Shown: positions 10,039-60,119 of the stretch, piece after piece
Layout of the letters: the number at the start of each line of letters is the position of its first letter
Numbering within the stretch: position 1 is the first letter of the stretch
Assembly (NCBI GenBank): GCA_951406725.2
Contig: OX597830.1
Location: forward strand, 3,100,001 to 3,164,000
Origin: Octopus vulgaris
Taxonomy: Eukaryota
Direction of reading: 5' to 3'
Length of the DNA: 64,000 nt
The notes under the pieces: generated by a model
The model's input: the letters and a program-made list of their open reading frames with translations, nothing else
Database searches by the model: none
Told to the model about the DNA's origin: nothing
Position numbers and translations under genes: made by a program

Positions 10039-10076
10039 TCTTTAATGTTTCGAGCCTACACTCTTTCACAGAAAGA
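10039..10076 (-). ncRNA. Degenerate minimal hammerhead-like motif in a (TA)n-adjacent short element (~9950-10125)
   Basis: Minus strand reads tcttt-CTGTGAA-a-gagt gtag gctc-GAAA-ca-TT-aaaga; related to the copy at 30143-30180. Confidence 0.4.
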
Positions 10077-11519
10077 AACAAGGAGAGAAAGTAAAGAATG
10101 TGTAGTGGCTAGCGATCTATCATAAGCAAGCAAGTACACTGGCTTTGCCACGTGCTTTATACAGGTTATTCCTATTAATGCTAATCCCTAAATTTGGCAG
10201 TTGAGATTAAGTTAATCTTTGTTGATCTTTGATATTCACTTCCTCCGTTTCAGGAACATAAATGGAGAAGTCATTCCTGTTTGGGTTTGAGTCTTGACTG
10301 TGGATGGGAAAAATTAAAAATCGTTAGTCCTTTAGTACAATGTTCAACTCTTCCTACCATTCTGCTACATAAGTTCTTCTAGGAAATCTCTCAATGAAAT
10401 CTCTCTATTGAAAGGCCATATATTCTAATTAATTTTGAAAAGCTTAAACATTTAGTTAAAAAATTAAGTCAATTTATGGATTGTAACAGAACAATGTCCT
10501 TTCAAGTAATTTTGGTCAAAGGTTGTTTATATATGAATACTTTAAACAGCAGGTTTGTATCATAAAACAAGAAATGTTCTCAGATAGGTTTGGTATAAAT
10601 AGAGATACTACAAGTGTATAAGTCTTCAAAACTTTATTAATATAATTTTGTGCTACAAACATAGGCAATCAAATGTTTTTACTAATTTCAACTCATCGGA
10701 ACCTCTTCTTATCTTTCTTCAGTCAACTTACGCCTCTCTCTCTTTTTTTTTTCTTTTTTACCTAAGGTAGAACCGTTCAGAGTGTACCACAGTCCATCTT
10801 GGATATTGAAGCAAAGAAGTATACAAGTATTTTTCTGATATTGAATTAGATGAACTCATAAACACAGAAGAAGATACAATACTTTTGATGTTAACAGAAG
10901 ATTAATTTTGAGTAAGAACTTTCTGTATTAAAAACTAATACATTCTCCTAAAAGAAAAAGAGCTTGAAATATTGAGGACTTGGAAACACTTATGTTATAA
11001 ACATTGTTATTGTAAAGCAAAACAAAATAAGGAAAAAAATTGGTTGTTATAAAAGTGAAGTATATTGATGTGTTAGAATACATAATTTTATATTTTGATG
11101 AGAAAAGGATTGATTTGTAGACTTTTGCCAGTGTGGAACAGAAGATAAGAGGCTCGTAGTGAGATATATATTCCCACTGGAAAACAAATATTTTTGTCTA
11201 AACAATTTATCTTAACAATTTCTGTTATTTTTATATTCTGAAAAATTTCAACCTTCAGATGTTTGTTTACAAAATCTGCTATTTTTGACCAGAGAATCAC
11301 TTTAATATCCTTGTTAATTTCCTAAACAGTAAATCATTTTCTTATTTGTATGTTGAAATCAACATATTTATTATGTTATGGAAGCTGTAAAAAAACTAAG
11401 AACACATATGCTTGGGGATGGATATTATAAATTGTGCTAATCAACAGTTAAATTCATTGTTAATATTTTGCATAAGAAATAATAATAATAATAATAATAA
11501 TAATAATAATAATAATAAA

Positions 11520-12075
11520 TGCCCTGATGCAGTACCAAGCAGTGGCTCCCATGGCTTCTGATCTTAACTGATTGGAAGTGTTATCATGTACATTGTTTTG
11601 TCTTGGTATAAAAGATGGGCTACAGCAAATATTCTGCTCAATACCACAGATTTGCTTGTCAGTTGTTTGACCTTAACCAGTTGATTATATCCCTTTGTGG
11701 CTGATGATATGTGCATCTCTGATCACGAGCAGAAGTAGTGGGGGAGCATCATAGCCATGTGTTGAGAAGGATTCTTTGGGGTTTGAATAATTCACCTCCG
11801 GAAACATGGGTGGTTCTTTCAACATCCTTAAACAACATTTATTCAGGGACCGTTTAAGTGGGATGGGCTACTCAACCTGAAGAAAATTCTAACTGGGCCC
11901 CACCTGCAAGGTCATGTGCTGTTTATCTTGATATGAGATCACCATGTCGCGCACATATGGTTGTGATGCATGTGCCTGGTGCACCCTTATCAGACAGGTA
12001 GTCATGATGGGTATATCGGGCTTCGTATATTTTACCCCAGTGTCACTTTGATGGCATGCACTGTTCTCTCACTCA
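11520..12075. mobile_element. Unclassified ~555-bp non-coding element inserted in an (AAT)n tract
   Basis: Complex sequence with sharp boundaries and (AAT)n on both sides; no recognisable coding motifs. Confidence 0.55.
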
Positions 12076-12339
12076 ATAATAATAATAATAATAATAATAA
12101 TAATAATAATAATAATAATAATGATAATAATAATGATAATAATAATGATAATAAAATGAACGAACTACTGAGTTTGGTTTAATGGCCTACCAATGTATAC
12201 TATGAGTTTCTTTGCCCTAGGAGTCGGGAAGACACTCGGCAAGAAATGGAAGCAAATTTGAAAGAAGAAAAATAATAATAATAATAATAATAATAATGAT
12301 GATGATAATTATAATGACAATGATAATTATAATGATAAT

Positions 12340-12720
12340 AAAGAAAGCAAACTATGCTGGATCATAGATTTAGCATGCCCAGCTGACAGCAAGGTGTGCA
12401 ATAAGGAAGAAAGAAAAGTCGATAGGTATGACAGGTTAGCTTAGGAGGTTAAGCAGTGGTGGTTGATAAAAAAGGTGGTAGTAGTACCAATAATTGTCGG
12501 AGCCCTGCGAACAATGAGTAAAAATCTTGAGAAGTACATGGAACAAATAGGGGCTGCAATAAGGGTAGAGCACTTGGAGAAAACAGCACTGTTCGGAATT
12601 GCTCAAATACTCCAGTTGGTGCTTGAAAAATAAGGGGTGATACCTTAGTTCACTGGTAGTGAACAGCTGACACTGTAGTATATCTCCAGCATTAGAAGCT
12701 GTGCAAAGGCAATAAAATGA
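12340..12720 (+). mobile_element. R4/Dong-like LINE 3' fragment (RLE domain), older subfamily
   Basis: Translates to ...IIDLACPAD...KVDRYDRLA...VPIIVGAL...LEKTALFG...LEK*; flanked by TAA/TGA repeats. Confidence 0.75.
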
Positions 12721-12997
12721 TGATGATGAGGAGGAGGGGGAGGAGGAGAAGGAGGAGGGGGATGAGAAGAGAAAAAGAAGAATCCTTTATACCATAGGCA
12801 CAAACCTGAAATATATAAACACACTCATATATACACTCATACATAAAGTTACAATACTAAACTAAAAACAAAGTTTGGATAAACAAAGAATTAAAAAGAA
12901 TTACTATTATTATCATCATCACCATCATTATTATTATTATCATTAATATCATCATTATTATTATTATTATTATTATTATCATTATTATTATTATTAT

Positions 12998-58200: not shown

Positions 58201-58732
58201 TCACCATCCCATGTTCAATATATAAAGCTGTTCTGATGAGACATAATTTCACAATATATTCACTCATTCATTATAACTCATCAGTGATCGAAATGAAACT
58301 GCTATATTTATACTGCTACATATTTGGATATGAGATAAACTTCTTCCTCTATATTTTGTCTATATATATATATGTGTGTGTGTGTATGTATATATATATA
58401 TATGTGTGTGTGTGTGTGTGTGTGTGTGTGTGTATATATATATATATATATATATATATATATGTATGTATATATATTTGTATACAAACACATTCACACA
58501 CATATACACACAATGAAGTTTGTTATGGAACATGAGGATGATAACTATCATAGAGTATTTTCATCCCTAAAAGAAATTGCCCTCATGGCCCTCTTCAAAA
58601 GTTCTACCAGTGAACTATGTGATTAAAAAATGAGATAAAATTAAATATACTAATACATAATTTAAATTTAGTGTGACAGAAATGAAATAAAGATCATATA
58701 TACGTATTATATAAATAAAGATCTCATATATA

Positions 58733-59146
58733 CTCTTTACTCTTTACTCTTTTACTTGTTTCAGTCATTTGACTGCGGCCATGCTGGAGCACCACCTTTA
58801 ATCGAGCAACTCGACCCCGGGACTTATTCTTTGTAAGCCCAGTACTTATTCTATCGGTCTCTTTTGCCGAACCGCTAAGTGACGGGGACATAAACACACC
58901 AGCATCGGTTGTCAAGCAATGCTAGGGGGACAAACACAGACACACAAACATACACACACGCATATATATATATACATATATACGACGGGCTTCTTTCAGT
59001 TTCCGTCTACCAAATCCACTCACAAGGCATTGGTCGGCCCAGGGCTATAGCAGAAGACACTTGCCCAAGATGCCACACAGTGGGATTGAACCCGGAACCA
59101 TGTGGTTGGTTAGCAAGCTACTTACCACACAGCCACTCCTGCGCCT
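58733..59146 (-). mobile_element. SINE family B, least-decayed copy (others at ~40500-40925, 49360-49825, 50110-50275, 53485-53645, 61110-61442)
   Basis: CpG-rich, with tRNA-like head, central microsatellite and a short AAAGAGTA-type repeated tail. Confidence 0.9.
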
Positions 59147-59579
59147 ATATATATATATATATATATGTATATATATATGTGTGTGTGTGTGTGTGTGTGT
59201 ATTTATGTTTATATATGTATGTAAATAGATAAATATAGATACACACACACACACACACACACTAACACATGCTCACACATACTACTATTGATAATAATAA
59301 TAATATTACTAAATTCACTATAGAGAATAATGATTGAATTGTCTGAAATTCTGCTGCCAGATATTGTAATTACTTGCATGCAATAATGTTGGTCAAATTA
59401 AAGGAATCCTTCAAACCAATCCAGGCCTTCAGTTTTGCTATTTTCTTCCAATATTTGAAGTACCAAGAATTATTAACAATAAACCATAGGAGGCTAAATG
59501 AAAGACCTCACTCAAAAGAGTGGTGCTGGTCTGGCCCTCTCTTAACTATGACAGCAAATGTTTCAGTTGGTCAAAGTGG

Positions 59580-59810
59580 CTGAATACTCCACAGACACAC
59601 CATTAATATAGTTCTCAGGGAGATTCAACATGACATAGAATCTGACAAGTTTGGCTCAGTGAATTACATGTACGACTCATTTTTGCCAGCTGAGTGGATT
59701 GGAGCATTGAGAAATAGAGTGTCTTGCTCAAGGACACAAGGCACTGCTGGCAATTGAACTCGTGACCTTACCACCATGAACCAAACACCCTAACCATTAA
59801 GCCGTGTGCC
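59580..59810 (-). mobile_element. tRNA-derived SINE, family C (relatives at ~39720-39870 and 54543-54810)
   Basis: A/B-box-like head followed by a ttgtgtccttgagcaagacac...ccactcagctg block. Confidence 0.65.
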
Positions 59811-60073
59811 TTCTAGAGCAATGCTAGTTATTTAATCATGGCTTTAGTTTCTGCTGAGAGAGGAACTAGCCAGTGTTAGGTTTTTATTACAGATGATGAA
59901 TTAGGTACATGTCCACCAAGACTAAATGGTTTAAATGTTCAAAATCAGACAATTCAATGTTTATCTTATTGCCAGTTTTCAAATTCAGTTCTGTATTTAA
60001 GAGACAGGGGATTGTGTACATTCTTTACATTATTTACATTTGACGGATATTTGTCCTCATCTTGTTTGTAGTT

Positions 60074-60119
60074 AACACAACGTTTCGGCAGGTATACCCT
60101 CCAGCCTTCATCAGGTGTC
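60074..60119 (-). ncRNA. Minimal type-I hammerhead motif with intact CUGAUGA/GAAA, in an (AAT)n-headed element at ~59985-60317
   Basis: gacac-CTGATGA-a-ggc...gcc-GAAA-cg-TT-gtgtt. Confidence 0.65.

Follow-up and report, generated by a model that had tools for sequence, protein, structure and literature searches.

Hammerhead motifs and the units that carry them

The DNA studied here, referred to as the window, is a 64-kb stretch (64,000 nucleotides) of Octopus vulgaris contig OX597830.1 (assembly GCA_951406725.2, positions 3,100,001 to 3,164,000 of the forward strand), with 35.8% GC and abundant microsatellites and retroelement debris. An original prediction placed nine hammerhead ribozyme-like motifs in it and linked them to Penelope-like elements (PLEs). 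We found hammerhead-like sequence at all nine coordinates, of uneven quality, on units that fall into families A, B and C and the single units D, E and F. These units, together with two PLE relics with remains of reverse transcriptase (RT) or endonuclease sequence, are the following:

9951–10135, minus strand: family A unit with a decayed minimal hammerhead at 10039–10076; A6U; CpG-type change breaking the stem III palindrome; (TA)n directly at the 3′ end
25336–25523, plus strand: family B unit with the long 3′ end and a hammerhead at 25385–25430; G12A and C15.2U, both CpG-type; (AAT)24 before the unit
30041–30258, minus strand: family A unit with a minimal hammerhead at 30143–30180; A6U core; (TA)n at both ends; predicted cut 30148/30147
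30417–30575, minus strand: family C unit with a minimal hammerhead at 30515–30549; U4C core; (TA)n at both ends; predicted cut 30519/30518
32850–33084, plus strand: unit D with a Hydra-clade-type hammerhead at 33014–33051; U4C core; 3′ arm 33053–33084 ends at (TA)n
38601–38728, no strand assigned: unit F (motif 38665), two inverted 5′-truncated degenerate arms with Hydra-type stem III remnants in each; no passing ribozyme
49897–50095, minus strand: unit E with a Hydra-clade-type hammerhead at 49931–49985; intact core; the inverted arm begins inside the hammerhead
52388–52580, minus strand: family C unit with a hammerhead at 52495–52529; U4C, G12A and a stem II mismatch; 3′ end meets (TA)48; 5′ limit approximate
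59982–60167, minus strand: family B unit with a hammerhead at 60074–60119; canonical core; predicted cut 60079/60078
2830–3700, plus strand: broken PLE relic, Hydra-clade-like thumb/endonuclease end; translation matched by eye to Hydra-1_Obim; limits approximate
6090–7720, minus strand: broken PLE relic, RT and C-terminal GIY-YIG-type endonuclease, Neptune-like; limits approximate

Both strands were searched at four levels of strictness with a type-I hammerhead descriptor that demands the core CUGANGA, GAAA and UH between stems I to III; core positions follow the conventional hammerhead numbering. The descriptor was written after the motifs had been seen, and it agrees with the published consensus of metazoan PLE hammerheads. 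An exact core was found twice, at 60074–60119 (−) and 49931–49985 (−). When one core mismatch was allowed, the matches rose to six, with the addition of 25385–25430 (+), 33014–33051 (+), 30515–30549 (−) and 30143–30180 (−), and every one of them is a predicted site. At this level, dinucleotide shuffles gave a mean of 0.175 matches (local, n = 40) or 0.075 (global, n = 40), with a maximum of 1, and the reversed window gave none. The loosest descriptor yielded 11 matches in the window against shuffle means of 2.6–3.2 (maximum 6).

The three remaining motifs depart further from this core. The motif at 10039 was recovered by the loosest descriptor only, and its unit is 73% identical over 131 nt to that of 30143. 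The motif at 52495 fails all four descriptors (G12A plus the stem II mismatch), and its unit is 84.5% identical over 168 nt to that of 30515. The motif at 38665 also fails all four; its two inverted arms are 76% identical over 131 nt. Eight of the motifs are hammerhead-derived, two of them as decayed sisters of passing copies, and 38665 is a degenerate relic, for which an origin other than a hammerhead appears improbable. The type-I topology proposed for all nine sites therefore stands for the six matches and, by kinship, for two more, but not for 38665. An Rfam scan of the window had no hammerhead among the best 150 of its 186 matches, and the top ones were microRNA models placed on microsatellites.

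The setting described for the motifs was largely confirmed. All nine lie 32–109 nt from a di- or trinucleotide microsatellite, compared with 23% of random positions within 110 nt, a threshold picked after the fact, and inverted repeats enclose three of them (33014, 38665 and 49931), as had been claimed. The units were also said to lack open reading frames (ORFs); this holds overall, with the qualification that the 25385 unit contains a 56-codon frame, whose database matches are probably translated repeat copies. Stems that differ between families and still pair had been predicted as well. Across A, C and the coral-type family introduced below (seven related sequences), three of the four stem I pairs are changed on both sides, and 94% of the cells are paired vs 15–40% when the alignment is slid. 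Stem II is nearly invariant in the same seven sequences, in part because the search pattern fixes it. In all, the 64 kb hold eight or nine hammerheads of five or six families.

Families, ends and abundance of the units

The hammerheads of family A (10039, 30143) and family C (30515, 52495) are minimal (Neptune-type), and the two families are distantly related to each other (nhmmer E values of 0.001–0.3). On the 3′ side their units stop at (TA)n, and the 5′ ends differ within A and within C. The features of minimal PLE hammerheads, namely an extra base lying between residues 9 and 10.1, the pair G10.1–C11.1 and a palindromic two-base stem III, are all present in 30143, 30515 and 60074; in 25385 and 10039 the stem III palindrome carries a CpG-type change.

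Units D, E and F each consist of a 3′ end joined to an inverted, 5′-truncated second copy. In D the inverted arm (32957–32988) is 100% identical to the 3′ arm and continues in an extension whose far end, at about 32850, was estimated by eye; in E the extension runs to about 50095, where it ends at (TA)n. The hammerheads of D and E have a stem III of 4 bp closed by a one-base loop, identical to Hydra-clade rows of File S2 of Craig et al. 2021 (PMC8557442). In that supplement, the stem III of 33014 is that of Penelope-3_HM and its stem I that of Hydra-2_aMil, and the stem III of 49931 is that of Penelope-1_HM and Penelope-18_HMa; (TA)n is the insertion preference of 26 of the 27 Hydra families listed. 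Hydra-type stem III remnants were read by eye in both arms of F. A Hydra-type RT-endonuclease ORF adjoining D, E or F was not found within the window, and the relic at 2830–3700 is not linked to them. Located 3′ of the hammerhead at differing positions (33053–33069 and 50061–50077), a stretch of 16–17 nt and a brief AT-rich motif occur in both D and E and are possibly a shared protein-binding or priming signal. Six short motifs compared with the supplement of PMC8557442 gave chance matches only.

Family B, also a minimal-type hammerhead, has no parent found. Its two copies in the window (25385 and 60074) are 89% identical over 189 nt, have both ends in common, and are preceded by (AAT)n, which in the 60074 unit is an (AAT/GAT)n tract at 60168–60314; this unit also has an optional tail at about 59982–60025. 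A short motif before the microsatellite recurs at the far 3′ end (25262–25265 and 25520–25523; 60315–60317 and 59982–59985) and could be target microhomology or the terminal redundancy of a circular unit, as seen in these two copies only. When 59760–60178 was compared with four sequencing runs, 28,641, 25,905, 3,447 and 1,116 contigs matched, the first two numbers coming from DNA runs with different organism labels. In one run (X1) the summed depth over the unit reached 3–7 million, with single contigs at 30–60. These values hint at about 10^5 copies, although depth does not count copies; if the window is typical, its two copies in 64 kb agree with this. No RNA run carrying the family B stretch is listed; two runs guessed to be RNA contain family B contigs, which shows neither transcription nor cleavage. 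Among the matches listed, the top loose ends lie at 60167, running into (GTT)n(ATT)n on the plus strand, and at 60017–60026, running into mixed AT-rich DNA or into the tail to about 59982. A joint from 60119 to 60046, with a summed depth of 1523 in X1, possibly reflects 75-nt head-to-tail hammerhead dimers in some copies.

The majority letters of family B restore a 6-bp stem II (99% and 97% in X1), which in the 60074 copy is broken by two private changes. Among the matches listed, core variants above 5% occur at the free position N7 (16% in X1; 12% and 11% in run X11), CpG sites vary at G12 (13%), C11.1 (17%) and stem III (3–7%), and the other core positions have no variant row; U4C accounts for 13% in run X15 and 0.5–2% in the other three runs. 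This pattern fits selection on source elements and neutral decay of copies. Across the window, the ratio of observed to expected CpG is 0.38.

The 56-codon frame of the 25385 unit has 98 database matches, the longest of 274 amino acids, which look like translations of other repeat copies. By alignment, 26 of them belong to B and 72 to a sister family, B′, which is known from translations alone; read by eye, one match (P0077) looks unrelated. The 3′ ends are bimodal in both, at two points about 10 codons apart in B′ (21 and 38 of the 65 counted) and in 8 and 6 of 18 translated copies of B. In B′, 16 of the 72 matches contain head-to-tail units of 43 codons (129 nt), with an in-phase junction of the tail end and hammerhead stem I, and some matches hold inverted copies, as read by eye. 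We considered whether the frame is the start of a PLE ORF, as in Poseidon elements, and saw no support for it: no protein continuing the frame was found among these matches of at most 274 amino acids, as read by eye. One of the window's repeat families is contained in two named database proteins, both from Octopus bimaculoides. One of them, predicted dystrobrevin beta isoform X1 (P0037), starts with a family B copy (88% identity over 26 residues to the translated 25385 copy, the remainder of the protein lying outside the window), either an exonized repeat or a gene-model artefact.

Parentage of the units and competing explanations

We favor, with a probability of about 0.72, the reading that the units are hammerhead-bearing 3′ ends (pseudo-long terminal repeats, pseudo-LTRs) of several octopus PLE families, inserted in heavily 5′-truncated form. 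A PLE or solo pseudo-LTR origin had been proposed from the outset, and it gains from the Hydra-clade stem III of 33014 and 49931, from the tails and inverted arms, and from an endonuclease found next to the core of family C. A metagenome scan with this core returned 65 loci (about 40% GC, 48 distinct upstream contexts) that match the Neptune PLE hammerhead of Acropora digitifera in the supplement of PMC4209133, and which we call coral-type. In five of the 65 (four distinct: L003/L021, L047, L048 and L049) the core lies about 100 nt behind the C-terminus of an endonuclease; L049 contains a cysteine linker and a Pfam GIY-YIG match (E = 7.7e-4, below the curated cut-off). Of the other 64 loci, 39 become homologous to L049 no more than 8 nt from the core; in the remaining ones the homology begins at graded distances of up to 456 nt. 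An inverted arm occurs in 17 of the 48 distinct loci, a tail in 13 and a stem I of at least 3 bp in 33. These results make ORF-less hammerhead units the ordinary outcome of PLE truncation. Five RT homologues had no match in the 65 loci, so that endonuclease ends alone are seen there.

The anatomy of the octopus units is that of truncated PLE insertions, since it matches the features described by Frangieh et al. 2024 (PMC11167929: two priming sites, a tail, nicking of AT-rich DNA and a protein-assisted hammerhead in Poseidon) and by Craig et al. 2021 (PMC8557442: truncation, an inverted copy, a tail and a microsatellite bias in Hydra PLEs). The hallmarks observed are the inverted arms of D, E and F, the variable 5′ ends in A and C, and the two 3′ ends in B and B′; the fixed 5′ end of B is the exception. 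On a mechanism borrowed from published PLE biochemistry, the RT–GIY-YIG protein would bind its own RNA and nick AT-rich or microsatellite DNA. Reverse transcription would be primed 3′ of the hammerhead at either of two sites, which would leave an optional tail of 30–40 nt, and would mostly halt just beyond the hammerhead, template switching giving a second copy, inverted or in tandem. The ribozyme would act in the tandem transcript of a source element, as a dimer through the palindromic stem III and probably with assistance from protein, and the dispersed single copies would be mostly dead on arrival, decaying at CpG sites.

Several observations weigh against this interpretation. None of the octopus families was found 3′ of an RT/GIY-YIG ORF within the window. 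The link to an endonuclease was seen in another animal and runs through the shared core and stem II, with a different stem I and different flanks; an alignment to L049 may end where sequences have diverged and not only where a copy is truncated, and the search pattern, which required an entire core, left out copies that are cut within the ribozyme. Family B, unlike elements with graded 5′ truncation, has one fixed 5′ start abutting (AAT/AAC)n, both in the two copies of the window and in the top loose ends listed for three of the four runs. Finally, no specific sequence is common to either relic and any of the units, and the 3′ regions of the relics gave low-complexity matches only. As both also contain many stops, the suggestion that these two relics mobilized the units is not supported. 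Pfam returned nothing useful for either relic; for the one at 6090–7720, 3 of 23 homologues contain PF00078, and the match to the L049 endonuclease has an E value of 3e-4. Directly behind the Hydra-like relic, about 3715–3740 (+) resembles, by eye, the 3′ side of the Hydra-1_oBim hammerhead; the rest of that motif is unrecognizable.

The strongest competitor regards at least some of the families, or all of them, as genuine non-autonomous elements, either PLE derivatives similar to short interspersed nuclear elements or retrozyme monomers, whose own short RNA is cut by paired hammerheads, possibly circularized, and copied in trans by a PLE protein. The original prediction named elements of this type alongside solo pseudo-LTRs; we consider this unlikely for the families in general, and for B and B′ alone we regard the two outcomes as about evenly balanced. 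The contig numbers (28,641 and 25,905) with the fixed 5′ end at 60167, the lack of a long ORF among the 98 frame matches, the 129-nt head-to-tail units of B′, and the 60119–60046 joint, if it is a 75-nt tandem within B, all argue for it, as do the pseudo-LTR-derived retrozymes with many monomers described elsewhere (10.64898/2026.07.22.740005). Because of its fixed 5′ end and very high copy number and the B′ tandems, family B may be non-autonomous, and B and B′ are the best candidates for such elements. However, the nine units of the window are each single or inverted, with none in tandem, the inverted arms and two 3′ ends of B′ are ordinary hallmarks of PLE insertion, and a microsatellite in the 3′ untranslated region of a full-length PLE that aborts reverse transcription would likewise fix the 5′ end. 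In addition, B′ is seen in translation only, and a parent ORF exists for the family C core.

It is very improbable that the host retains single copies as functional ribozymes for cutting transcripts of introns or intergenic DNA. This reading would draw on the intact core of two copies, on the family B copy that opens the predicted dystrobrevin isoform of O. bimaculoides, and on a contig with another organism label that spans 59760–60004, the flank of 60074 and the end of its tail, with 19 differences, from which the insertion is probably old. Against these, seven of the nine copies depart in the core or in stem III, four of them by plain CpG-type decay (10039, 25385, 52495 and 38665), stem II of 60074 is broken by its private changes, and single minimal hammerheads did not cleave in vitro in PMC4209133. 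That the motifs are chance matches in AT-rich, repeat-rich DNA is hardly credible: two mismatches give two to three matches per shuffled window and three in the window outside the predicted sites, and 38665 and 52495 fail every descriptor, but the six matches at one mismatch vs a maximum of 1 in 80 shuffles, the family homology, and the agreement with the published consensus and Hydra stems rule out a chance origin for eight of the nine.

The window contains further repeats. Two inverted pieces of a long interspersed nuclear element (LINE) with (AAT)n tails, at 13005–14829 (−) and 16558–18916 (+), are 99–100% identical, which points to recent insertion or duplication; we take them to be of the Dong/R4-like clade. 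A broken LINE with a restriction-like endonuclease end lies at 44701–47668 (+), Pfam being silent on the two frames tested. The end of a transposase at about 52600–53038 (−), presumably mariner-like, is inserted directly upstream of the 52495 unit. Two minisatellites (1991–2256 and 54870–55260) each have a 17-nt period and are unrelated to each other, and a short fragment of a different repeat at 59760–59815 has a summed depth of 4,000–15,000 in run X1.

Core variants and relation to known systems

U4C is present in both copies of family C and in unit D, and A6U in both copies of family A; both arms of F may derive from a U4C core by CpG-type changes and one further change. U4C adds CpG sites, counter to the mutational bias. 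In the coral-type family, C4 is found in 10 of 11 copies outside the search pattern. These 11 are not independent, 10 of them being no more than 200 nt away from a selected copy, and the example published from Acropora carries U4. A natural viroid hammerhead with U4C shows lower activity in vitro and works in vivo, and A6C has low activity (Perreault et al. 2011). The core patterns of B and C gave no match in viral contigs, those of B and A none in prokaryote genomes, and the Hydra-type U4C pattern none in the 65 coral-type loci, hence outside the window neither A6U nor the U4C of unit D has support.

Our literature search on U4C-type cores and on octopus or cephalopod hammerheads, which covered neither Lunse et al. 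2017 nor the transposable element databases, returned no paper on these families, and the main text of an O. vulgaris library paper (PMC13282606) has no occurrence of 'hammerhead' or 'ribozyme'. Hydra PLE microsatellite targeting (PMC8557442) and dispersed single hammerheads from truncated PLEs (PMC4209133) are already published. U4C or these families may already be contained in Lunse et al. 2017, Repbase or Dfam; a U4C core as a family trait missed by standard descriptors is possibly new.

A bolder and decidedly tentative proposal is that U4C is a widespread, functional form of PLE hammerhead overlooked by CUGANGA descriptors, a family trait in C, present in D and presumably in F, and dominant in a coral Neptune family, with family B as a non-autonomous element of the order of 10^5 octopus copies that spreads through short tandem or circular RNA. 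If so, U4C would mark ribozymes that are deliberately damped or dependent on the PLE protein. The catalogue of Lunse and colleagues is said to hold about 150,000 PLE hammerhead variants. Should U4C cleave, published counts of PLE hammerheads would be underestimates, and natural U4/U4C pairs would directly test the role of slow ribozymes in PLE transposition. Family B, with thousands of copies across related species, would allow selection on a ribozyme to be measured and offers a case for how a truncated pseudo-LTR becomes a retrozyme.

As in the minimal metazoan PLE hammerheads of PMC4209133, families A, B and C have the extra nucleotide after A9, G10.1–C11.1, a palindromic CG for stem III and a short stem I, and the motifs described there likewise occur for the most part as scattered single copies, which that study calls 'probably related to truncated PLEs'. 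Family C has its core and stem II layout in common with the Acropora digitifera Neptune motif of that study; in contrast, its U4C and the A6U of family A are absent from the alignment rows examined, and octopus has no occurrence in the one of its two supplementary files that was searched. The Hydra-clade hammerheads of PMC8557442, including Hydra-1_Obim, resemble D and E in the 4-bp stem III with a loop of 1–2 nt, the (TA)n targets, the inverted 5′-truncated copy and the tail. Stems I and II of Hydra-1_Obim are unlike those of 33014 and 49931, which are therefore other families, and the U4C of 33014 occurs in no Hydra row of File S2.

Non-LTR retrozymes (PMC7229834; 10.64898/2026.07.22.740005) are also short non-coding hammerhead units of PLE kinship, and the 129-nt head-to-tail units of B′ are similar to them; octopus is not among the 35 genomes described in the latter source. 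The tandem arrangement typical of retrozymes is seen in none of the nine window units and in the 16 of 72 translated B′ matches. Unlike retrozymes, the window copies are single, their hammerheads are minimal or Hydra-type instead of canonical with loop–loop contacts, and they are known here from DNA. The Poseidon PLE of Anolis (PMC11167929) is alike in its two priming sites, optional 30–40 nt tail and AT-rich targets, and differs in that its ORF starts inside the hammerhead, whereas no protein continuing the family B frame was found. Taken together, these comparisons extend the known pattern of PLE hammerheads to octopus, with a high density in 64 kb.

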